Shown piece after piece: positions 460 through 16,776 of a stretch of 18,486 nucleotides of DNA; the first letter of the stretch is position 1; every line of letters begins with the position of its first letter. The translations under genes were made by a program, and so were the position numbers. The DNA is from a virus (taxonomy: Duplodnaviria; Heunggongvirae; Uroviricota; Caudoviricetes), in IMG/VR virus record IMGVR_UViG_2681813135_000006; one strand, written 5' to 3'. A model generated the notes under the pieces. It did no database searches. It was not told the origin of the DNA and saw only the letters and a program-made list of their open reading frames with translations.

Positions 460-992
460 TTATCGAGCCCCCAGCATGCCAACGCGCTTTCTTGGTCGCG
501 GCGTTCCACCTGACCGAAGCATCCGTTCTTCTGCCCCTTGGTTAGCCGGCAATCCCGGCCGCCATCTTTTATCCACCAGCGGATCGCTTCGCATGCCCCT
601 TTACGGTCACCGGCATTGATGCGCTTATAGAACGTCGAGGGGAAGCACTTACCGGGCCCGATGTTATACGGGCAGAAAGAAGCTATTCCGGCCTTTTGCG
701 GTTCGGTCAGCGGCACCCTGATATTGCGTTCAACCCAGGCCAGCGCTTTATTTCGCTCAACGGCATTCACCTGGTCACATTTGGCCTGCGTCAGCTTCAT
801 GCCCTGGCGAACTGGTTTACCATCTACCAGCGTGGCGCCGCGGCAAATAGTCCAGACGCCGCCACCGTCCTGATAAGCAATCAGGCTGTTGCCTTCCTTC
901 TCATTCAGGAACTGATCGAGAATAACGGGCGCTGACGCACCGGCGAGGATAAGACCTAATACCGCAGCGCTAAGCTTTGATCTGTCAGCCAC
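456..992 (-). CDS. Phage endolysin, lysozyme-like (RrrQ-type) with an N-terminal SAR-like hydrophobic segment; start re-called to GTG at 992
   Basis: Protein reads like prophage lysozymes (EGNSLIAYQDGGGVWTICRGAT...CFPSTFYKRINAGDRKGACEAIRWWIKDGGRDC) by recall. N-terminus LSAAVLGLILAGASAPVIL resembles a signal-anchor-release domain. GTG at 992-990 overlaps the holin TAG stop; the ORF-track start at 1103 is GTG with no RBS and lies inside the holin gene. Confidence 0.85.
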   Translation of the reverse strand: MADRSKLSAAVLGLILAGASAPVILDQFLNEKEGNSLIAYQDGGGVWTICRGATLVDGKPVRQGMKLTQAKCDQVNAVERNKALAWVERNIRVPLTEPQKAGIASFCPYNIGPGKCFPSTFYKRINAGDRKGACEAIRWWIKDGGRDCRLTKGQKNGCFGQVERRDQESALACWGLDK

Positions 993-1207
993 TATTCCCC
1001 CCTGGCGGCTTTGCGCCGGTCCTCTTTGATTTTGAAATACAGGTTTGTCAGATACGTCAGCAGCCCGAACACCAGGCTGCCAAGCACACCAATGGCTGCC
1101 CACTGCGATGGTGACACCTGGTCAAGCAACTGCAGGCTCCAGTAACCAGCGTTAGTCGCTGATGCACCATAGGCGATGCCAGTGGTTAGTTTTTCCATGC
1201 GTAACAT
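992..1207 (-). CDS. Class II holin, phage 21 S21 pinholin-like, with dual-start motif (M1-L-R-M4)
   Basis: 71 aa; sequence [14 protein letters not shown]...[42 protein letters not shown] matches recalled S21 pinholin. Both M1 and M4 are ATG; strong SD GGAGGTG sits 6 nt upstream of the first ATG. Two predicted TM segments. Confidence 0.85.
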
Positions 1208-1307
1208 GCTCTCACCTCCGATTATTTCGGGGTGCTATGTGTAATGGGGATCAGGCTCTCGGGCTGCATTAACAACAAGGCTTGTTGAGGAGGTTTCCCG
1301 GAGCCTG

Positions 1308-1335
1308 AAAAAGAAAAGGCCCGCGTATGCGAGCC
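1308..1335 (-). terminator. Putative intrinsic terminator on the minus strand between Q and the lysis genes (candidate tR'-like site)
   Basis: Minus-strand RNA GGCUCGC-AUAC-GCGGGCC (7-bp stem, one G-U pair) followed by UUUUCUUUUU; about 100 nt upstream of the holin start. Confidence 0.5.
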
Positions 1336-1590
1336 TCTATAAATTCTTTGCCACTTCCCGGAGTGGCCACGCTCATGCCCTTGAGCTGCTGTCGCATCAT
1401 CGCCGCTTATCACCGGTGCGCGTCTGGCTTTCGCGCTGCTTTACCGGAGCTATTTTTAATCTATGAACCCTGACCCGTCACTACACAGGCTCGCTCAATG
1501 GCGACTCGGGGCAGCATCATGACTGCTGCATTGCCTTTCGGCTACGGTGTGTCCGTTCTACTCTACATTTTCATACCCTCCAGAAACGGC

Positions 1591-1620
1591 AAAGCCCCGC
1601 GGGGTTAACCGCAGGGCTTT
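1591..1620. other. Strong 12-bp hairpin (one G-U pair) of unknown function in the Q-to-holin intergenic region
   Basis: aaagccccgcggggttaaccgcagggcttt is nearly self-complementary around a ttaacc loop. No long U tract follows on either strand, so it is not a canonical terminator. Confidence 0.4.
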
Positions 1621-1715
1621 AAACGAAGGCAGTAACCCATCGTTGGAGAGAAATTAACACAGATTCGGGAAAAGTAAATAGCTCACGATAAAATCGACAG
1701 CGATTAATTGGTGCT

Positions 1716-2546
1716 TTATCGAGTTATTGCTCGCAGTTGCGATTCGGCCCACGCTTCTTCCATGTCGAATTTGGTGATCAGCCGGTCGTAAAACGGCTTC
1801 ACTGACTTTTTCCAGGTGTCCAGAGTAATGGCGTCGGTAATAAGGCAAACAGCCGCATATGCCTCAGTCGAGGGGATCCGCTCATACCCGCGCCCGCCGC
1901 AGCGCTTGCAGTCGGCCATCACCGGCGCGCCCTGCTTTTCTGTCAGCGTCTTGCTGACAGCTTTTCCGCGCCCCTGGCAGTCATTACATGCGCAGCTGAC
2001 GACCTTCTTCCCTTTGCAGGCCGAGCACAGCACCCGGGCCACCTCTTTCACCTCACGCCGATTCTGATGCTGCGAAGGGATAACCTTCAGCCCCCATTTT
2101 TTTGATTTTTGAATGATGTCTTTTGCGCAGCCAGAGATGCTGGTTTTCATACTAAAAACGTCAGCCTCAATGAACCCCTGCCCTGCGCAACATTCGCACC
2201 TCTTGACGCTGGCGGCGCTGCGGGAATAGTCCTCAAAAGCGAAGGTAGCAAGCTGGCGCATCACCAGCGGTTTAACCCCAGCGTCCAGTTTGCGCAGGGC
2301 AGCCACGCTATCGCATTTTGTCAGCGCATACTGGGCCAGCAGCTCGATCGCTCTCTCCCGATCGTTGTTGCTGATGCCCATCTTTCCGAGAAAGGCACTG
2401 TAGCCCATGGCGGCGCGTTCCTGGGTCATGCCCATGGCTGCCATGATGTCCGTTCCGGTCAGCGAGTCGGAGGCCGTAGCGCGCGGAGAGTCGCTAATCA
2501 GCGTCGATTTGGCGAAGTGGTATTTCACGGTGTTTTCGAGGTTCAT
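1716..2546 (-). CDS. Putative late-gene antiterminator Q (Q-like, with two CxxCxGxG zinc-finger-like motifs)
   Basis: 276-aa ORF; ATG at 2546 with SD AGGAG 7 nt upstream. Lies between rusA/ylcG-like and the lysis cassette, the canonical Q position. Motifs CNDCQGRGK and CKRCGGRGY. Family assignment is by position and recalled similarity to prophage antiterminators. Confidence 0.6.
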   Translation of the reverse strand: MNLENTVKYHFAKSTLISDSPRATASDSLTGTDIMAAMGMTQERAAMGYSAFLGKMGISNNDRERAIELLAQYALTKCDSVAALRKLDAGVKPLVMRQLATFAFEDYSRSAASVKRCECCAGQGFIEADVFSMKTSISGCAKDIIQKSKKWGLKVIPSQHQNRREVKEVARVLCSACKGKKVVSCACNDCQGRGKAVSKTLTEKQGAPVMADCKRCGGRGYERIPSTEAYAAVCLITDAITLDTWKKSVKPFYDRLITKFDMEEAWAESQLRAITR

Positions 2547-2683
2547 GCAGCAGCTCCTGCCAACTGGTTAATGCGAATAAAATTGCGAAGAATGCGGTAG
2601 TCCACCAGCACCGAACCCGGGCGGCGATAAATGCGGAGGCGTGTCCAGCGCATGCGGATTACCTCAATCAGTTCTGATGTCAT
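2543..2683 (-). CDS. Small 46-aa protein, YlcG-like by position (not in the ORF track)
   Basis: Minus-strand ATG at 2683-2681 overlaps the rusA TGA, and its TGA at 2545-2543 overlaps the Q ATG (ATGA coupling at both ends). SD GGGGGA upstream. Translation [46 protein letters not shown]. Same position as ylcG between rusA and the Q gene in DLP12. Confidence 0.55.
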
Positions 2684-3042
2684 AAGTCCCCCAGTTCGGT
2701 GATGGTCAGCTCCAGCCTGCCGCCCCTGACGACGGGCATCCGTATAACGCGGTAGTCGTCCACCAGCTGATCGTCCTGCCAGAATCCGGCCTTAGTAAGC
2801 GCGTCGAACGCGGCCTTCTGCAGGTTGTCCAGGTCACGGCGGCGGCGGGCAGGCATATGGCACTCGATGCGAATCTTCACCGGGCCGGAGATGCCGATAT
2901 CCAGCAGCTGGTCTTTGATGATTTGGGCCACGCGGTCGCGGTAAGCCTGCCCTTCCGTGCTGATGTGCGTACGCCCGCGATTGTGTCGGTAATAGCGGTT
3001 ATTACTCGGTGGCCACGGCAATGTGATTTTGTACTCGCTCAC
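2680..3042 (-). CDS. rusA: Holliday junction resolvase RusA; start re-called to GTG at 3042
   Basis: [35 protein letters not shown]...[61 protein letters not shown] is near-identical in pattern to E. coli RusA (recall). GTG start preceded by an AGGGGAAGG-like SD; the ORF-track N-terminal extension overlaps the upstream gene. Confidence 0.9.
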
Positions 3043-3329
3043 GCTTTCACCTTCCCCTCTTTCAGCCAGATAACCTGCGTGCGGGCCATGCCCTCCAGCG
3101 CGCACTCCTTTGCATAATCCGCGTCGACCAGGCGAGTGCGGCGGTCGATTTCGTCGTGACAGCTGCTGCATGCAATGGTGGCAATCAGATCAGGCGGCTT
3201 AATTCCGGTACCGCACAGCCCGGCCAGGCGAATATGCGCCAGCACGCTTGTGTCTGGGTTGCCGTTGCACACGCCGGGGATCCGAACCTGACATTCGCGA
3301 CCGCGCGCAGCTTTGCGTAAATCCGCCAT
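3039..3329 (-). CDS. ybcO: YbcO-like protein (DUF1364 family, putative Zn-binding nuclease), 96 aa
   Basis: From the internal ATG at 3329: [34 protein letters not shown]...[11 protein letters not shown]...WLKEGKVKA, matching DLP12 YbcO in sequence and in position upstream of rusA (recall). The ORF-track N-terminal extension was rejected. Confidence 0.8.
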
Positions 3330-3331
3330 GC

Positions 3332-3538
3332 TCACCCCCAGACCTTCTGACGGAGTGACCGCGGCGTACGTTCCTGCCGGTGCGCCTCCGGCAGCCGGGC
3401 GCTGACGGTCCAGGTGACGTAATCGGGATTCAGGCTTCGCTCTACCTTCACGCCGCGGCGCCGGTATTCCGCCATGAGCTCGTCGGCCTGCTGCGTGGTG
3501 CACTCGGTGTGCTGGAACCATGTTTCTTTCATCGGCAT
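3332..3538 (-). CDS. Small hypothetical nin-region protein (about 66-68 aa)
   Basis: ORF in the ninE-equivalent position; candidate starts are GTG 3541, ATG 3538 and ATG 3532, with the upstream gene's TGA overlapping. No recognisable family. Confidence 0.5.
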   Translation of the reverse strand: MPMKETWFQHTECTTQQADELMAEYRRRGVKVERSLNPDYVTWTVSARLPEAHRQERTPRSLRQKVWG

Positions 3539-4137
3539 CACCCCACGAAGCTCATGAGCTGCGCAGCGGCATTATCCGCGTCGCTACGGCTCTTGAATGC
3601 CCTGGACAGGATCCAACGCCACAGAACATCGAGTGCGGCCCTGTAGAGTTGCTGGAACTCGGTTTCGTCCATATTGGCGAAGGCGATGCTGCGGGGGTGT
3701 TTGCGGAGGGTGCCGTCAGGCAGCTGTATCGCGTCGTAGTGGCCGGATTCGATGGTTACCCAGGCGCGGTAGGCGTCGAATGACTTGCAGGCGCTGATGC
3801 TGCCCGTGCGCTTATCAGCGATGCGCTCGAGATATTGCTCAGCGGCATCCAGCAGCGCCCCTTCGTTCCCGCCGTAGGAGGCCAGAAATCTGGCATAGCC
3901 GGTCACCAGCTTGCGTTCGTTGGAAGAGATCGCCCCGCCGGTTGGCTCCCAGTATTCGAACCCGAGGTTTAAAAGCGCGAAGAAGCGGCGGTGGAAAGCC
4001 GGATTGCGGACCTGTTTGAAGTCGGCTACCAGCACGGCGCCGAGTTTGATTTTTGATTGCAGAATATCGCTGGTCTCCGGCGTCGCGGGGATCAGGATTC
4101 CTGATGACTGCTTGATGAGTTGTAGTTCGTGCGCCAT
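3538..4137 (-). CDS. Conserved prophage nin-region protein of about 199 aa (possibly DUF1367-like; tentative)
   Basis: ATG at 4137 with SD GGAGAG 6 nt upstream; long ORF in the same direction as the flanking phage genes. Family assignment is by recall only. Confidence 0.65.
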   Translation of the reverse strand: MAHELQLIKQSSGILIPATPETSDILQSKIKLGAVLVADFKQVRNPAFHRRFFALLNLGFEYWEPTGGAISSNERKLVTGYARFLASYGGNEGALLDAAEQYLERIADKRTGSISACKSFDAYRAWVTIESGHYDAIQLPDGTLRKHPRSIAFANMDETEFQQLYRAALDVLWRWILSRAFKSRSDADNAAAQLMSFVG

Positions 4138-4171
4138 GGTTTCTCTCCGTGGCGCAGTAGGTTACGGTTGT

Positions 4172-4420
4172 TCAGACCGTTGATTTCATATTATCAGAAG
4201 GTTGGGTTACCCGGTAGCCGAGACGGTTAATAAACTGCATAAAACCATTAGGAGTAAAGACCTCTTCATCATCCAGCAAAGGCCGCATAGAAACCATGCC
4301 ATTGACGCGATAAATTAGATGCCTGCCCGATGAAGGAAAGCTAAACACCACGCAGCCGTCAGACCTTCTTACAATGTCATACCAGTTGTCTTCTGACGTT
4401 TGCAAAGCTGAATCACTCAC
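4172..4420 (-). CDS. Hypothetical 82-aa protein downstream of the dinI-like gene
   Basis: GTG start at 4420 with AGGGAG upstream; no family recognised. Confidence 0.45.
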   Translation of the reverse strand: MSDSALQTSEDNWYDIVRRSDGCVVFSFPSSGRHLIYRVNGMVSMRPLLDDEEVFTPNGFMQFINRLGYRVTQPSDNMKSTV

Positions 4421-4537
4421 ATTTATGTTCTCCCTTCGAGCGACTAACAGACGCGATTAAAGATTGTCGGCAGCAGCATCAGAGGGTTACGCAAATTGCG
4501 GTATTCTGAAAAATGCGCGCCAGCCTTAAGCGCAATT

Positions 4538-4771
4538 CTAATAAAACCAGTCGTCAGCGCTTTCCCAGGTATCCTGGAGGATTGATTCAATTTTCTTTTT
4601 ATCGTCCTTGTCACCACCAAAAACACTTAACCCATCGGCCCCGGCACGGCGGATTGTGAGCCTGCAATTGTCATAGTGATCATTCAGGCGCTTAAGCAGT
4701 TCTTTCTCCAGTGCTGGTACTGCGCCTTTAGGAAGTTCTTTCATGCGATCAATGGTTAATTCAACTTTCAT
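4538..4771 (-). CDS. dinI: DinI-like DNA-damage-inducible protein; start re-called to ATG at 4771
   Basis: MKVELTIDR...LSVFGGDKDDKKKIESILQDTWESADDWFY parallels E. coli DinI (MRIEVTI...ISEILQETWESADDWF) by recall. A LexA box lies immediately upstream. Confidence 0.85.
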   Translation of the reverse strand: MKVELTIDRMKELPKGAVPALEKELLKRLNDHYDNCRLTIRRAGADGLSVFGGDKDDKKKIESILQDTWESADDWFY

Positions 4772-4789
4772 AATGGCCCCCATTGCATG

Positions 4790-4809
4790 TACTGTGTTTT
4801 TATACAGTA
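4790..4809. promoter_or_regulatory. LexA (SOS) box, TACTGTGTTTTTATACAGTA, upstream of the dinI-like gene
   Basis: CTGT-N8-ACAG palindrome matching the E. coli consensus TACTGT(AT)4ACAGTA at 16 of 20 positions; 19 nt upstream of the dinI-like ATG and overlapping a plausible -10 region. Confidence 0.75.
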
Positions 4810-4871
4810 TACCTATGCGCGGAAATGATCAACGTTTTAAGAGCACAAATTGTTAATTTTCTGTCAGTTGT

Positions 4872-4899
4872 AAAAAAAGAAAACCCGCCGTAGCGGGTT
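4872..4899 (-). terminator. Rho-independent terminator on the minus strand
   Basis: Minus-strand RNA AACCCGC-UACG-GCGGGUU (perfect 7-bp stem) followed by UUCUUUUUUUU. Confidence 0.7.
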
Positions 4900-5262
4900 G
4901 AATTAGCAGTGTTATATTAAGCGGCAATTTCTTTCTGCCGGCACAATCCCGAGAGATTCGCCCTCTGTATCGCATCATCAATGAGCACCTGTATGACCAT
5001 GAGGCAAAGCGTTATCCAACTTGCATTCATCTTTTTCAATCAGCAAAGGAGTGGTTAGTGCTGTGAGTGGGCTTTGTTCACTTCATGGTAGATAAATCAG
5101 CTATGGATAAGTGATAAGAGGTGAAATCAATCCGAATTAACAACCTGAAGCACATTAATCGGAACACAGATATTAAAATCCTAAAGTCTAGTAACAAATA
5201 GCCGATATGAGATATTGCTTATCAGTTTAAAAATCATCTATTGAAAAAATGGGGGGGAGGCG

Positions 5263-5826
5263 TTGAAGCGAGTAGAGCGCGATTTTATCTGTCTGTTTAA
5301 TTGTGTGTGGTATCAAGATTTCCCTGTGTTCAAAGGTGAATATATCAACCGTTCCAACTGGACCATTCATGTTGGCCTGGTCATGCGCGAGTGTGCAAAG
5401 TTAATGGGCGCAAGAACATTTTTTGAACAAGGCGGGCGTACCGATGCGGTCCTACAATATCCAGACAATCAAATTTTAACCTATGTTGAGTGGGAGTATA
5501 ATCAGGCAGACAGAGATAGCGTTAACGAGTTAGACAAACTGCTTGAAAAAAACGACAAGTGCTATTTCTCCACATTCATCTCATATTGTCAGCATGAAAA
5601 CATCAATATTGTTATTGAAAAAGCAAGTAGAATATGGAGTGAAGCAAGCAGGCCTTTGATTTTTTTTCTTATCACCTATGAGCCTCAAACGAAAAAACGC
5701 CGCCATTTTTTAGAACTCAGAACTTATTTTTTCTCAAACGGCAAAAGAAAACTAGTTCGCAAACAACCTGCGCTTCCATGGGATATTGAGCAACGAAAAT
5801 ACAATGTCGAAGAAGATGCAGGATAG
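5263..5826 (+). CDS. Hypothetical 187-aa protein encoded in an AT-rich island on the opposite strand to the flanking phage operon (candidate moron/accessory gene)
   Basis: TTG start at 5263 immediately after a very strong SD (GGGGGGGAGG at 5251-5260). Visibly AT-rich coding sequence. No TM segment or family recognised. Confidence 0.6.
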   Translation: MKRVERDFICLFNCVWYQDFPVFKGEYINRSNWTIHVGLVMRECAKLMGARTFFEQGGRTDAVLQYPDNQILTYVEWEYNQADRDSVNELDKLLEKNDKCYFSTFISYCQHENINIVIEKASRIWSEASRPLIFFLITYEPQTKKRRHFLELRTYFFSNGKRKLVRKQPALPWDIEQRKYNVEEDAG

Positions 5827-6049
5827 AAGAGACATAAGGTTTTCACGACAGTCTCGTTCCGAGCCCTAACTAAAATATTCTGTTCGGAGCAACCAAATAG
5901 CTCTGGCTTTGCTGTGACCATGTTCGCGGTACCAACGCCTCTCTAGGTCCGCTTCTCGCTCATGGTGGACCAAAATCAAATCTAAAATGACGTGGCTAAG
6001 CGGGAGTACATAGTGAATGACAGGATGCTCCGGGCAGCACCATACTAAT

Positions 6050-6247
6050 TCAGTTCCCGTCAGAGGTAGGCGTTGCTTCATGATGGGATGAGCGCTCCCT
6101 CCAGACAATCCATGCGACAGCCGCCTCCCATGATATATATCCATTACCGCCATTTTTCGCTCTGCGGAGATTAACTGCATCACCAAACCTTTCAATGATG
6201 AATTTTTCAAATTCTATGCGTTTTTCTTCGTCGATTGTTGAATCCAT
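6050..6247 (-). CDS. Hypothetical small acidic protein (65 aa); may be the 5' part of a frameshifted gene continuing in another frame to 5866
   Basis: ATG at 6247 preceded by GGGGAAGG. The ORF-track entry 5866..6210 overlaps it in a second frame. Confidence 0.35.
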   Translation of the reverse strand: MDSTIDEEKRIEFEKFIIERFGDAVNLRRAKNGGNGYISWEAAVAWIVWRERSSHHEATPTSDGN

Positions 6248-6464
6248 ACCTTCCCCAGAAGAGTCCTACGAATCGCTCTTATTGCATAAAAAATAGCATA
6301 TACAATAGAGAGTGAAAAACCGACGTAGCGGGTTAACTTTATGTTACTCATGAGTCTTGTCTCGCTGCGACTTAAAAGCGGAACATTCTCGCGCAAGTTG
6401 CGTTGCTAAAGCTACGGGGTTGAATGGCTCTCCATGCCCATTTAAGAAGGCATGCGGTGTGTAG

Positions 6465-6493
6465 TTGAACGTTATTTAAAACACAGATAGAAT
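6465..6493 (+). promoter_or_regulatory. Putative sigma70 promoter for the secreted-protein gene
   Basis: -35 TTGAAC (6465-6470), 17-bp spacer, -10 TAGAAT (6488-6493), about 30 nt upstream of the ATG at 6527. Confidence 0.35.
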
Positions 6494-6526
6494 CAAGAAA
6501 AATCCTAAATAAATGGAATATTGTTT

Positions 6527-6907
6527 ATGGCTAAGAAAATCGCATTACTGGGCTTTTCTGCTCTTTTTGTTGCAAGTGTTGCTTTTGCTGAAACGACAAG
6601 TAACTGGGTTGAGGTTACTACAGCTGATGATGGCATTTTTTCAGCAAAAAAAGGCACATTTAGAAATGTAAAAGGTGATTCATCTGCCTTGTTCATGTAT
6701 CAAACAAAAAATAAAAAAGTAGAGTACTACAAAGTTAGTATTAAAGATGCCGACTGTGATAGTGGATATGGGGAGATAAGATTCTTCTATATGGATGGGA
6801 AATTAGCTTTCAAAGGTGATTATGTTGCTGATGGGAACAGTGTTGGCGCAGGTATTGGTGATTTTATGTGTGGAGTCAGAATTGGACTTAACACACAAAA
6901 AAGTTAA
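6527..6907 (+). CDS. Secreted/periplasmic protein of unknown function (126 aa, Sec signal peptide, 2 Cys)
   Basis: From ATG 6527: MAKKIALLGFSALFVASVAFA followed by ETT, a typical signal peptide with an AXA cleavage motif. Mature part is Gly/Asp/Lys-rich with two Cys. AT-rich; the TTG at 6521 in the ORF track is probably not the start. Confidence 0.7.
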   Translation: MAKKIALLGFSALFVASVAFAETTSNWVEVTTADDGIFSAKKGTFRNVKGDSSALFMYQTKNKKVEYYKVSIKDADCDSGYGEIRFFYMDGKLAFKGDYVADGNSVGAGIGDFMCGVRIGLNTQKS

Positions 6908-7321
6908 ATGAGGGGCATTTGTTAAAAAACAATAGCCCCACATTAGATCAATATTGGCTCCGGCATTTCTGGATAAAAGCTTCTATGCTACGGCGCTCAT
7001 AGCGAACAATCTTAGCGCTGAACTTTACACGGGGCCAATGTAGACCGGTGTCGGTGTTCTGTATTCCATTTACATAATGTTTTTTGCGTAATTCCCAGCT
7101 TCTGGCATACCTCGCCCGGAGTGAGGAGATCATCAGGTTGCTCAGTCATGTTATGCCTCGCTGTTATCTGGGGTGATGATTAGCAGCTTCCAGATGGCTG
7201 AGACATACATAGCCTGATGTTTCGCATCGACTAGGGCATTATGCATGTCACCTTCAAACGGCATGTCCCGAGTTCTCCCTTTTCGCCGCTTTCGCGTCGC
7301 ATATTCTCCAAACGGTATTTA

Positions 7322-12604: not shown

Positions 12605-12742
12605 CGAAAACCCCGCGCAAGGCGAGATTCACGTCCGGTGCCACCGACCAAAGTTACACCGGAATTTATACCAAACCAAAAAACATCCAATGGGCGCTAT
12701 CTCTGGCCCGGGGATTCTAACACTCAAAAAAGAGGATCTCAC

Positions 12743-15652
12743 ATGGAATTTTTCCATCTGATAAAAGCCAGTCAGAAGTCTGGCAAGAAAGATGCAGTGA
12801 TTTGGTTCACTGCGAAAAGTGTAGCGCGCGCCAATCTCCAACTCGATGTGGCACTGGAAGAAGCCGGAATTGAAGAAACTGGCCGCGGTAAAGATTATGC
12901 CAAACCAATCCGCACCGATTTCCCGGTATATGACGACCTGCCGGAAGAAGGCGCAGTGGATTACACCTGGTGCAAACGCTACGAACTGCAGAACGATGAC
13001 CGCACCTGGATGCCAAAAGTCACAGCTGAAAACTCTGACGAGAAAACGGCTCAGACCGTTGATAGTCACATAACTACTGAGTCAACGCTGCCAGAAACCG
13101 CTGGCATCACGCTGGACGAACACGACGACGACTCAACCCTCTACCCGGTAGTGCAGATGCCGTTTCGTAAGCAACTGCTTTCCCAGTTCACCGCCGACGA
13201 ACTGCGCCACCACGTAACCCGCGAAGAGTACGAAGCTATCGGCGCGCTGGAGATGGACACTGATAACAGTTACGTCCAGAACTTGCTGTTAGCTGCTGAG
13301 AACTGCCCGGACGTGAAGGGTTACGACACCAAAGACCTGTGGCGCTACACCGATGCCATTCGCAAAGTGTTCAGCCAGGACAAGCGTCACGAACTCGCGC
13401 TGGTACTCCGTTTCACCAGAATGTGGGCGGCGACTGATTACATTGACCGTGGCATCCTGGCGCGTGAATGGGCTGCCGGTAATCACATCAGTAGTGTTCA
13501 GCGTACTGATTCCGGAACCAATGCCAACGGCGGTTACGTCACTGACCGTGGACCTGATGCATACCATACCCTTGACACTCTCGATTTAGAGATTGCATGT
13601 GCCCTTCTGCCTATGGACTTCAACCACTTCGAGATCCCGGGCAGCATTCTTCGTCGCGCTAAAGAAATCGTGACCAAAAAAGAAGAACCGTGGAAATCAT
13701 GGAGCAGCATTCTGCGCAATCAACCCGGCGTTCTTGGCGTTAACCGCACAGCTATTTTTAACCTGATACGTATCGCGCCGGAAAATATTCATCTAACTCC
13801 TGTCGCTCACCTGGAGTTTGTTAACCGGACCATGACTGCTGCGTTTAATGCTGCTGTTGAGTTATTGCCATTGCATGAAGCTGAGCCCGCAACACAGGAA
13901 ATTCCCCAACCTGAAAGTAAGGAGTCTCCACGCAAACCCTTCTGCACTCACGAAGAGAACCTGCAACGCGTACGTGAAGAAGAAGCACGCCGCCGCGCAG
14001 AGGAAGCGACAGCACAACCACATAAAGCCGAACAAGAACTGGTTAAAAATGTCGGCAACGGAATATTCGATGTTACGGCTTTACTGCAGAACTCAGCAAC
14101 TCATGGCACGAAACAGGCTACGGAAACCACCAGCAATGTGCAGGTTCAAGAAACTGTCAGTGATGAAAAAAATGTTGGTAATGAAATGCAGTCAGGCGAA
14201 AGCAGTCTGGAAACTGGTGAAGAGTCACATCCCGGCCAGCAGGCCGATGTAAACCAAAATACGGAATCTGTCGCTCAAAATAGCGATTCTGTAAACCAGA
14301 CTGAACCAGTTTTGGCACACGTCGAGCCAGAGGCGCAATCTGACGAACAAGCTGTTTTTTACCCCGATTACTTCGAGCCTGGGCGCTATGAAGGTCTGCC
14401 GAACGAGGTTTACCACGCTGCCAACGGCATCAGTTCCACCCAGGTAAAAGATGCGCGCGTTTCGCTGATGTACTTCAATGCGCGCCACGTTGAGAAAACC
14501 ATCGTCAAAGAGCGCTCCTCAGTGCTGGACATGGGAAACCTGGTACATGCGCTGGCGTTGCAGCCAGAACAGCTCGATGAAGAATTTAGCGTTGAACCCG
14601 TAATTCCGGAAGGTGCATTTACCACCACGGCAACGATCCGCGCGTTTATTGATGAGTACAACGCCAGCCTGCCAGCGCAACTGAGCGCAGACGATATCAA
14701 AGCTTTGCTGGATGAATACAACGCCACCCTGCCAGCGCTGGTGCCGCTGGGCGCTAGCCTGGATGAAACGGCGCAGAACTATATGGCGCTGCCAGCTGAA
14801 TTCCAACGTATCGATGCAGATCAGAAGAAGACAGCAACAGCAATGAAGGCGTGCATCAAAGAGTACAACGCCACCCTGCCAGCGCAGATTAAAACCAGCG
14901 GCAGCCGCGACGCACTACTCGAACAACTTGCGATTATCAATCCTGACCTGGTCGCGCAGGAAGCTCAGAAGCTGCAACCGCTGAAAGTCTCTGGCACGAA
15001 GGCCGATCTGATTCAGGCCGTGAAGGCAGTCAAACCAGATGCAGTGTTCGCCGACGAGCTGCTCGATGCGTGGCGCAACAACCCGGAAGGGAAAGTGCTG
15101 GTTACCCACCAGCAACTTGCCACCGCGCAGGCAATTCAGTCAGCACTGCTCTCGCACCCGACCGCAGGCATGCTGCTAACCCACCCGAGCCGCGCCGTTG
15201 AGGTGAGCTACTTTGGCTTTGACGAGGAGACGGGACTGGAAGTTCGTGTGCGCCCTGACCTTGAGATCGACCTAGACGGCGTGCGTATCGGTGCTGACCT
15301 GAAAACCATCAGCATGTGGAATGTTAAGCAGGAAAGCCTGCGCGCCAGGCTACACCGGGAAATTATTGAACGTGATTATCACCTGAGCGCGGCTATGTAC
15401 TGCGAAACCGCAGCGCTGGATCAGTTCTTCTGGATTTTCGTCAACAAAGACGAGAACTACCACTGGATCGCCATCATCGAGGCATCCGCTGAACTACTGG
15501 AGCTGGGTATGCTCGAGTACCGCAAAGCGATGCGCAATATCGCAACCGGATTCGACACAGGTGAATGGCCAGCGCCAATCACTGCTGACTACACCGACGA
15601 ACTGAACGACTTCGACCTGCGCCGCCTTGAAGCGCTGCGTACTCAGGCATAA
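12743..15652 (+). CDS. recE: RecE-like exonuclease (exodeoxyribonuclease VIII family), 969 aa; start re-called to ATG at 12743
   Basis: N-terminus MEFFHLIKASQKSGKKDAVIWF...FPVYDDLPEEGAVDYTWCKRYEL parallels recalled E. coli RecE. Long acidic/Gln-rich middle region. C-terminal region (YFGFDEETGLEVRVRPDLEIDLDGVRIGADLKTI...) is consistent with the RecE nuclease domain. SD AGAGGA 6 nt upstream of the ATG. Confidence 0.85.
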   Translation: MEFFHLIKASQKSGKKDAVIWFTAKSVARANLQLDVALEEAGIEETGRGKDYAKPIRTDFPVYDDLPEEGAVDYTWCKRYELQNDDRTWMPKVTAENSDEKTAQTVDSHITTESTLPETAGITLDEHDDDSTLYPVVQMPFRKQLLSQFTADELRHHVTREEYEAIGALEMDTDNSYVQNLLLAAENCPDVKGYDTKDLWRYTDAIRKVFSQDKRHELALVLRFTRMWAATDYIDRGILAREWAAGNHISSVQRTDSGTNANGGYVTDRGPDAYHTLDTLDLEIACALLPMDFNHFEIPGSILRRAKEIVTKKEEPWKSWSSILRNQPGVLGVNRTAIFNLIRIAPENIHLTPVAHLEFVNRTMTAAFNAAVELLPLHEAEPATQEIPQPESKESPRKPFCTHEENLQRVREEEARRRAEEATAQPHKAEQELVKNVGNGIFDVTALLQNSATHGTKQATETTSNVQVQETVSDEKNVGNEMQSGESSLETGEESHPGQQADVNQNTESVAQNSDSVNQTEPVLAHVEPEAQSDEQAVFYPDYFEPGRYEGLPNEVYHAANGISSTQVKDARVSLMYFNARHVEKTIVKERSSVLDMGNLVHALALQPEQLDEEFSVEPVIPEGAFTTTATIRAFIDEYNASLPAQLSADDIKALLDEYNATLPALVPLGASLDETAQNYMALPAEFQRIDADQKKTATAMKACIKEYNATLPAQIKTSGSRDALLEQLAIINPDLVAQEAQKLQPLKVSGTKADLIQAVKAVKPDAVFADELLDAWRNNPEGKVLVTHQQLATAQAIQSALLSHPTAGMLLTHPSRAVEVSYFGFDEETGLEVRVRPDLEIDLDGVRIGADLKTISMWNVKQESLRARLHREIIERDYHLSAAMYCETAALDQFFWIFVNKDENYHWIAIIEASAELLELGMLEYRKAMRNIATGFDTGEWPAPITADYTDELNDFDLRRLEALRTQA

Positions 15653-15657
15653 GGGGA

Positions 15658-16776
15658 ATGATGATGGAAAACACGAATATCGTAACCGCTGAACAGCAGA
15701 CTCCAAACACGATCTCAGCCAGCAATGCCATTTTCAACGTGCAGGCTTTAACCCAGCTTCAGTCTGTCGCCGGGTTGATGGCACAGGCAGCCGTAACGGT
15801 GCCTGAGCACCTCCGCGGCAATCCGGCAGACTGCATGGCCATCATCATGCAGGCGATGCAGTGGGGTATGAACCCTTACGCCGTGGCGCAAAAGACGCAC
15901 CTGGTTAACGGTGTCCTGGGATACGAAGCGCAACTGGTTAATGCGGTGATCTCCAGCTCAAACGCCATCGTTGGCCGCTTTCACTATGAGTACGAGGGCG
16001 ACTGGTCGAAATGTGCCAGCAGCCGCGAGATAACCGTTAAAAAGCCTGCGAAAGGTGGCGGGACGTACGACAAGAAAGAAATGGTACGCGGTTGGGAAAG
16101 TGCTGATGAACAAGGACTGTCGGTACGGGTAGGTGCCGTTATTCGCGGTGAAAGTGATATCACCTGGGGAGAGCCTGTTTTCCTCTCCAGCGTAATCACA
16201 CGTAATTCTCCACTTTGGGTATCAAACCCGAAACAGCAGATCGCTTATCTGGCACTCAAATACTGGGCGCGCCTGTATTGCCCTGCAGTTGTTCTTGGTG
16301 TGTACACCCCTGATGAGATTGAACAGCGCACAGAAAAAGAGATCAACCCAACGCCGCAACGCGTTAGCCTGGCTGATATCTCAGGTGACACCGTCACAAC
16401 CACGCAAAGCGCACAGGAATCGTCGGTAAATGTCGACTCTCTTGCCGATGATTTCCGCGAACGCATCGAATCTGCTCAGGACGTGGATAGCGCCAAATCG
16501 CTGCGTGCCGACATTGAAACGGCGAAAGCTACGCTGGGATCCGCACTATTCACCGAGCTGAAAAACAAAGCCGTAAAGCGTTATTACCTAGTGGATGCAC
16601 GCAACAAGGTTGAGGAGGCTATTAAATCCCTGCCCCAGCCCGACGAGCCGCATGCATCCGAACGGTTCGCTGAAGCCGAGCGCATGCTTGCATCTTCAAA
16701 GCGTCACTTAGGCGATGAACTGCACGATCAATTCAGCATCACCCTGGCGGATATGAAACCGGAATACGTGGCCTGA
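15658..16776 (+). CDS. ssDNA annealing protein of the Redbeta/RecT family, with a long C-terminal extension (372 aa if from the first ATG)
   Basis: Begins 6 nt after the recE-like stop. ADCMAIIMQAMQWGMNPYAVAQKTHLV and SPLWVSNPKQQIAYLALKYWARLYCPAVVLGVY parallel lambda Beta motifs (QYGLNPWTKEIYAF; PKRMLRHKAMIQCARLAFGFAGIY) by recall. Three consecutive ATGs at 15658-15666; the exact start is uncertain. Confidence 0.75.
   Translation: MMMENTNIVTAEQQTPNTISASNAIFNVQALTQLQSVAGLMAQAAVTVPEHLRGNPADCMAIIMQAMQWGMNPYAVAQKTHLVNGVLGYEAQLVNAVISSSNAIVGRFHYEYEGDWSKCASSREITVKKPAKGGGTYDKKEMVRGWESADEQGLSVRVGAVIRGESDITWGEPVFLSSVITRNSPLWVSNPKQQIAYLALKYWARLYCPAVVLGVYTPDEIEQRTEKEINPTPQRVSLADISGDTVTTTQSAQESSVNVDSLADDFRERIESAQDVDSAKSLRADIETAKATLGSALFTELKNKAVKRYYLVDARNKVEEAIKSLPQPDEPHASERFAEAERMLASSKRHLGDELHDQFSITLADMKPEYVA

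Follow-up and report, generated by a model that had tools for sequence, protein, structure and literature searches.

We analyzed an imperfect 21-bp direct repeat in a stretch of 18,486 nucleotides (hereafter, the window) from the Caudoviricetes record IMGVR_UViG_2681813135_000006 of IMG/VR, and the repeat pair very probably represents two copies, one intact and one decayed, of a generic Rho-independent terminator hairpin located at lambdoid module joints. Copy 1 (GAAAACCCGCCGTAGCGGGTT, positions 4879–4899) and copy 2 (GAAAAACCGACGTAGCGGGTT, positions 6314–6334) are identical at 19 of 21 positions and both lie on the plus strand. When the window was shuffled 200 times with its dinucleotide composition preserved, no shuffle yielded two matches at three or fewer mismatches. 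This confirms the direct repeat reported in the original prediction, as well as its statement that the copies bracket the gene of a protein of 187 amino acids (aa; open reading frame (ORF) at 5263–5826, plus strand) and minus-strand ORFs at 5866–6247. No homology was observed beyond the 21-nt core, as 200-nt flanks on either side scored below shuffled controls. Because no extended homology, gapped homology included, was found around the copies, a segmental duplication was rejected as the source of the repeat. An Rfam scan across the window detected no known RNA family at the gathering threshold.

The two copies differ markedly in their predicted structures. On the minus strand, copy 1 forms a 7-bp stem, five pairs of which are G-C, closed by a loop of 4 nt (–12.8 kcal/mol, z = –4.9), the stem is followed by the U-tract UUUUCUUUUUUU, and the element was found by a terminator scan of the window. 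The value for copy 2 was –1.8 kcal/mol (z = +0.7), no better than those of shuffled sequences, because both of its differences from copy 1 fall in the stem and destroy G-C pairs; the tract that follows it on the minus strand (UUUUUCACUCUCU) is also weaker than the one after copy 1. The earlier proposal of a terminator-like minus-strand hairpin in each copy therefore holds for copy 1 but not for copy 2. The accompanying idea of duplicated terminators was essentially right, since both copies are of one minus-strand hairpin type, with copy 2 being a decayed relic.

The relation of copy 2 to intact hairpins was apparent from related phage loci. Window positions 5947–6334 share 83–90% DNA identity with L084, L097, L100, L127, L130 and L257, and an intact hairpin occupies the position of copy 2 in L100 (AAAAAACCCGCCGTAGCGGGTTT), in L084 (loop CGAA) and in L097 and L130 (loop CGGA). 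These intact orthologues fold at –13.7 to –14.8 kcal/mol, and relative to them copy 2 has one C deleted and one C replaced by A. Given that the stems are conserved and the loops vary (CGTA, CGAA, CGGA), selection appears to have acted on structure, that is, on termination, and not on a recognition sequence. The orthologous hairpins are located just after the stop codon of a small lipoprotein gene and before a 65-aa ORF, and copy 2 is probably the mutated remnant of the terminator that lies between these two genes in the relatives. In the window, the lipoprotein gene is replaced by a second block of foreign DNA from position 6335 onward, and homology between the window and its relatives ends at the outer edge of the hairpin (6334 in L097, L100 and L127; 6341 in L084). 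The degenerate form of copy 2 was found only inside the AT-rich island, in 17 fetched-locus and 6 metagenome instances and always with the same flanks. A separately decayed version (AACCAGCCATAGCGGGTT, –5.7 kcal/mol) is present in L127 and L257.

Sequence matches identified the window as a lambdoid prophage with mEp237, HK225 and phi80 as relatives, and comparison with mEp237 and with an identical prophage in Escherichia coli ES7 assigned the early-right (pR) operon to the minus strand. In minus-strand order, this part of the prophage contains a cro-like gene, YdaT, an O-like replication gene, DUF977, a dATP/dGTP pyrophosphohydrolase and an exoribonuclease remnant, followed by the AT-rich island and then by dinI, DUF1367, RusA and Q. 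From this order, with the replication genes on one side of the island and dinI to Q on the other, we determined that the repeat sits in the P-to-Q 'nin' region. In lambda, the nin region holds terminators, the deletion of which leads to N-independent growth (PMC5630979).

Copy 1 lies 17 nt past the stop codon of a methyltransferase remnant on the same strand. This remnant derives from a C5-cytosine methyltransferase gene, of which the window retains the final ~20 codons (ending in ...RANLSGLCRQKEIAA, with the stop codon at 4917–4919), for which L021 retains the intact tail (...GNAVPPPFAEALVRANLPELCQQKQIAA). In mEp237, which also has copy 1 next to dinI, and in island-free prophages, the 3΄ end or a remnant of the same gene stands directly before the hairpin on the minus strand. 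Copy 1 is thus the predicted terminator of the methyltransferase gene, which would part upstream transcription from dinI. A LexA-box-like palindrome, which fits the CTGT-N8-ACAG LexA consensus, is kept between copy 1 and dinI in all island carriers, and its presence upstream of dinI implies that this gene may be SOS-controlled, independently of the pR operon. By analogy with tR2–tR4 of lambda, copy 1 should also halt pR transcripts without antitermination.

Copy 1 belongs to the phage backbone and not to the island. Among 5,426 complete genomes of E. coli, 58 matched the left flank, and the island was present in only three of these. For the 55 prophages without it, homology spans both dinI and copy 1 and breaks off at position 4938 or 4965 of the window, 40–66 nt past copy 1.

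We next consider the distribution of the hairpin beyond this prophage. The hairpin, made up of an A-run, AACCCGC, a 4-nt loop and GCGGGTT, recurs in this lambdoid prophage group downstream of several small nin-region genes, on the pR-operon strand, and the motif was detected in 99 stretches in a scan of 2.9 million viral contigs. The exact 20-mer was present in the genomes of more than 120 species among the matches listed, including Enterobacterales, Pseudomonas, Nostoc and Clostridia, the chance expectation being ~1 (2 × 596 Gb / 4^20, our own calculation). The motif is thus a generic terminator, an outcome that the original prediction had itself named as speaking against its interpretation. 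A variant of the hairpin, GACGTAGT, was also noted.

Such a distribution across unrelated species and many unrelated phage contexts, together with the lack of homology outside the core, could suggest that the two copies are independent, convergent terminators of the common AAAACCCGC-loop-GCGGGTTTT design, with neither a shared history nor a role in recombination. We regard this explanation as unlikely, however, given that homologous flank classes reassort exactly at the hairpin. When the 50-nt flanks of 114 motif instances of the unbiased viral scan were clustered, at least 18 left and at least 22 right flank classes were obtained; the dinI-side left class L1 was joined to six right classes, and the commonest classes occurred in all four possible pairings (L1×R1, 49; L1×R7, 1; L4×R7, 14; L4×R1, 1). 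Since all four pairings are present, as in a four-gamete pattern, exchange at or within the hairpin is required. Moreover, breakpoints are located at the hairpin edge in several independent comparisons, and three hairpins that lie within 1.5 kb of one another in L084 have a common stem and 5΄ A-run. Convergence may account for how the copies arose, but would leave their coincidence with the joints unexplained.

The same coincidence was evident from the order of modules. Using T for the hairpin, frame for left arm–cargo–right arm, lipo for the small lipoprotein gene and Mtail for the methyltransferase 3΄ remnant, the order is dinI-T-frame-T-lipo-T-Mtail in L097 and L127, dinI-T-Mtail-lipo-T-frame-T in L084 and dinI΄-orf65-T-lipo-T-Mtail in L100. 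The order is accordingly permuted among these phages, with a hairpin at every joint. In published experiments (PMC3945230, PMC2327257), phage recombinases of the RecE/RecT kind built lambdoid mosaics where the shared homology was short or diverged, and because this prophage encodes both a RecE-like exonuclease and a RecT annealase, it is plausible that the reused hairpin acts as a crossover patch for these proteins. Near-identical hairpins, present in many phages and at more than one gene boundary, would thus provide short homology patches at which RecE/RecT-type or other recombination re-joins modules, although the part played by RecET in hairpin exchange is one that we infer. The second foreign block (6335–7150) was joined exactly at copy 2. 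We consider the repeat to be an ordinary consequence of lambdoid mosaic architecture.

As a rival explanation, the repeats might represent attL/attR-like sites or a target-site duplication generated by the insertion of a 1.4-kb cassette containing the 187-aa gene and the 5866–6247 ORFs, in which case a single copy would mark the empty site. An insertion event was raised in the original prediction, and this explanation agrees with the direct, same-strand orientation of the repeats around AT-rich DNA, and with the fact that island-free prophages hold exactly one copy, next to dinI. However, it is largely refuted and very unlikely to be correct, as backbone homology does not stop at the repeats. 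Beyond copy 1 it continues not only in the island-free prophages but also for ~175 nt in L084, L097 and L127 (82–92% DNA identity across window positions 4873–5061, with weaker similarity to ~5075), and phage backbone likewise makes up the 370 nt to the left of copy 2 (matching L084 7362–7757 and L097 5462–5851, and also L100 and L127). Because these segments are shared with phages that carry other cargo, the true cargo junctions can be placed at ~5075 and ~5944, inside the repeats. To the right of copy 2, the backbone is not resumed and the second foreign block begins.

Several further results are inconsistent with a mobile 1.4-kb cassette. No integrase or transposase was detected among the ORFs between the copies using Pfam, PHROG and PADLOC. 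The one-copy joint predicted from a repeat-to-repeat deletion had no match among 2.9 million viral contigs and 241 million metagenome records, so that the notion of one copy marking an empty site was not supported. The 187-aa, 65-aa and 126-aa genes, the last of which belongs to the second foreign block, were found together in all 20 genomic contexts examined, while the outer prophage flanks differed. A candidate joint in L116, a public scaffold in which host genes (Dus) seemed to abut copy 1, was discarded as an assembly artefact and not a deletion joint, since a gap of 10 N (L116 3344–3353) lies at the A-run beside copy 1. The description of the repeats as remnants of recombination is hence supported in a general sense, in that the hairpin is a mosaic joint where flanks reassort and homology ends at 6334, but not in the sense of ends of an inserted cassette, as island-free prophages keep copy 1 and the repeats lie ~175 and ~370 nt outside the cargo junctions.

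Alternatively, the hairpin could be a specific recognition site, for a site-specific recombinase, of an integron-attC-like or Xer-like type, or a nut/boxB-type RNA element, instead of a plain terminator. Its palindromic nature and its recurrence at module boundaries are compatible with such a site, but the orthologues keep the stem and vary the loop, the motif spans phyla without a common recombinase, no Rfam family was matched, no recombinase gene was associated with the motif, and the A-run/T-run geometry is that of an intrinsic terminator. We consider this explanation highly improbable.

Our preferred reading, that of a terminator hairpin reused at module joints, must also be weighed against several observations that count against it. 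So generic a hairpin could have arisen separately at both positions, which makes common descent of the copies, as distinct from common function, uncertain; the flanks also show no homology. Recombination precisely within the hairpin is suggested by the positions of breakpoints, and termination at copy 1 is predicted from sequence and folding. In the majority of island carriers, copy 1 is a weakened hairpin (GAAAACCCGACGTAGTGGGTT, –5.8 kcal/mol), which indicates that the site does not always retain strong termination; this form was observed in L104, L105, L108–L110, L112 and L113 at ~5617–5637 (corresponding to window 4879–4899), and also in L252, L253 and L255. Finally, the 129 nt to the right of copy 2 (6335–6463) had no homologue anywhere searched, and their 43-aa ORF remnant likewise gave no match when used as a protein query.

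The weakened copy 1 has a GACGTAG core in common with copy 2. Gene conversion between the two copies could be the cause, or else each may have decayed in parallel.

The coordinates of the features discussed here are listed in Table 1.

Table 1. Features around the repeat pair, with positions in the window and the basis of each assignment
Feature	Position	Strand	Basis
dinI, 77 aa	4538–4771	–	Pfam DinI, E = 3.8e-26; labelled DinI family protein in identical prophages
LexA-box-like perfect palindrome TACTGTGTTTTTATACAGTA, between copy 1 and dinI	4790–4809		Sequence reading
Copy 1 (T1), predicted intact intrinsic terminator; stem 4882–4888/4893–4899, loop CGTA, U-tract from A-run 4872–4881	4872–4899	–	Fold, terminator scan, conservation
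Left arm: C5-cytosine methyltransferase 3΄ remnant and ~100 nt of conserved backbone	4900–5075	–	Translation; DNA identity to relatives
Cargo 1, AT-rich, with the 187-aa gene (5263–5826)	5076–5943	+	Between conserved arms
Right arm: phage backbone with the 65-aa ORF and a conserved hairpin GGTCCGC...GGTGGACC (5946–5971) at the cargo junction	5944–6313	–	83–90% identity to relatives
Copy 2 (T2*), probable decayed terminator relic	6314–6334	–	No fold; intact orthologous hairpins; homology edge
Cargo 2, second block of foreign DNA directly abutting copy 2; 126-aa secreted-protein gene (6527–6907, +) and helix-turn-helix ORF fragment (7012–7149, –)	6335–7150	+	Plasmid and island matches; GC content
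RecE-like exonuclease and RecT annealase genes	12638–16776	+	Match to RecE/RecT genes of mEp237 and HK225

The arrangement hairpin–left arm–cargo–right arm–hairpin constitutes a recurrent frame, the interior slot of which (~5076–5943) takes varied accessory cargo. We compared the slot among the related phages and found four cargo types, in five variants, at one backbone position, with junctions that agree within ~5 nt. In the window, the slot contains ~870 nt with the 187-aa gene. It contains a CdiI immunity gene (PF24172, E = 5e-35) in L084 and L127, and an arsH-arsR-arsB-arsC-like operon in L097 and L128/L130. In L257, the cargo is 4.8 kb long and codes for an Mrr-nuclease/STAND-NTPase protein of 898 aa, alongside an ORF of 412 aa. 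The corresponding cargo coordinates are 6843–7369 in L084, 2502–5470 in L097, 2046–2849 in L127 and 474–5249 (reverse complement) in L257. The left junction has the form ...GGTTAGTGC-CA(A/T)(A/T)AGCGGAC(G) followed by the cargo, and the right junction has the form (C)GTCCGCTT(T/C)TCGCTCAT(A/G)G(C/T)GGACC preceded by the cargo. The cargo edges accordingly carry an inverted 7–8-bp AGCGGAC/GTCCGCT pair (~5062–5075 and ~5944–5971) together with a hairpin GTCCGCT-N10-AGCGGAC. The GC content of the cargo (0.38–0.41) is lower than that of the backbone (0.45–0.64). An empty form of the true cargo slot had no match in viral contigs with two pattern designs.

The frame could be imagined as a dedicated cargo-exchange locus of this phage group, where unrelated cargo for defence or immunity would be exchanged at a fixed GTCCGCT/AGCGGAC site (~5944–5971, with its inverted partner at ~5065–5075), operating by a mechanism more specific than flank homology. 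We regard this as a rather doubtful extension of the findings. If it were true, the 187-aa protein, with its putative BamHI-like nuclease fold, would be a novel factor for defence or exclusion, encoded by a single prophage gene.

On the right arm, the 65-aa ORF (6050–6247, minus strand) corresponds to an internal fragment of phrog_660 (PHROG, E = 6.9e-5), and it lies in a different frame from the overlapping 114-aa ORF, both being within 5866–6247 on the minus strand. Because the frame layout also varies in related phages, the backbone gene concerned has probably degenerated, or has been cut short where the cargo begins. A boxA-like octamer (CGCTCTTA, 6274–6281, plus strand) is located upstream of the 65-aa ORF on the opposite strand, within AATCGCTCTTATTGCATAA, which is invariant in L084, L097 and L100. 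It was considered as a nut element but set aside, as its strand is opposite to that of the pR operon and chance alone would give ~0.6 occurrences of an 8-mer in the window (our own estimate); its conservation probably reflects that of a promoter region, or chance.

The occupant of the slot in the window is of interest in its own right. The 187-aa cargo protein had no match in Pfam, PHROG or PADLOC, and a putative PD-(D/E)XK or BamHI-like nuclease fold was assigned to it. Its family is conserved across Enterobacterales and Pseudomonas, with D61, E76 and E78 as invariant residues. These residues may correspond to a motif of the BamHI type (D...ExE). A consensus scan of the plus strand revealed no convincing promoter or terminator for the 187-aa gene.

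The island DNA had no match in phage records. The only plasmid matches were to the block with the 126-aa gene and to the helix-turn-helix fragment, both of which belong to the second foreign block. This block, with a GC content of 0.365–0.39, had likewise no match in phages. Positions 6464–6915 are 79–81% identical to E. coli plasmids and to a tRNA-Thr island, and positions 6950–7159 are 72–77% identical to integrase-adjacent loci, where the helix-turn-helix fragment resembles integrase-adjacent regulators. The 126-aa protein has an obvious signal peptide (MAKKIALLGFSALFVASVAFA), and its homologues (~73% aa identity) are encoded on E. coli plasmids beside IS3 and in the tRNA-Thr island beside a YecR lipoprotein.

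We compared these observations with known systems. The lambda nin terminators tR2, tR3 and tR4 are also intrinsic terminators on the pR-operon strand, located between the replication genes and Q among small non-essential nin genes (PMC5630979), and by this analogy antitermination would be expected to override the terminators of the window. Unlike the lambda terminators, to which they have no sequence relationship, the elements described here reuse one hairpin sequence at multiple boundaries between genes, with one copy standing directly before the LexA-regulated dinI. As in lambdoid modular exchange (Martinsohn 2008; De Paepe 2014), the joints are at gene boundaries, short or diverged homology flanks the modules, and a Rad52-like recombinase, RecT, is encoded together with RecE. 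However, in place of diverged coding 'shoulders', the shared patch here is a terminator hairpin of only ~20–25 bp, with recombination deduced from flank reassortment.

The slot further resembles the morons and accessory hotspots of other phages (HK97/HK022 morons and P2/P4 hotspots) in that AT-rich and often oppositely oriented accessory genes are located between backbone genes, with alternative cargo in one slot (the nuclease-fold protein, CdiI immunity, the ars operon and the Mrr-STAND protein). It differs from these in its nin location between the methyltransferase remnant and the phrog_660-type ORF, and in its conserved frame of arms and hairpins, which is specific to this phage group. Imperfect direct repeats that flank foreign-looking DNA are also a property of attL/attR sites and target-site duplications, but here the repeats lie off the junctions, neither a recombinase nor an empty site was found by the searches described above, and the repeated sequence is a generic terminator.

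The repeat itself is textbook-style, and the novelty of these results is modest, comprising a defined nin-region slot for cargo and the uncharacterised protein with a putative nuclease fold that occupies it. They nevertheless provide a concrete case in which a reused terminator hairpin coincides with lambdoid module-exchange joints, which fits models of RecET/Red-type recombinases building mosaics at short homologies. The repeats also point to an accessory slot in the nin region with host-benefit or defence-like cargo, such as CdiI immunity, arsenic resistance and the Mrr-STAND protein, and the widely distributed, uncharacterised 187-aa protein is a reasonable candidate for a prophage defence gene.

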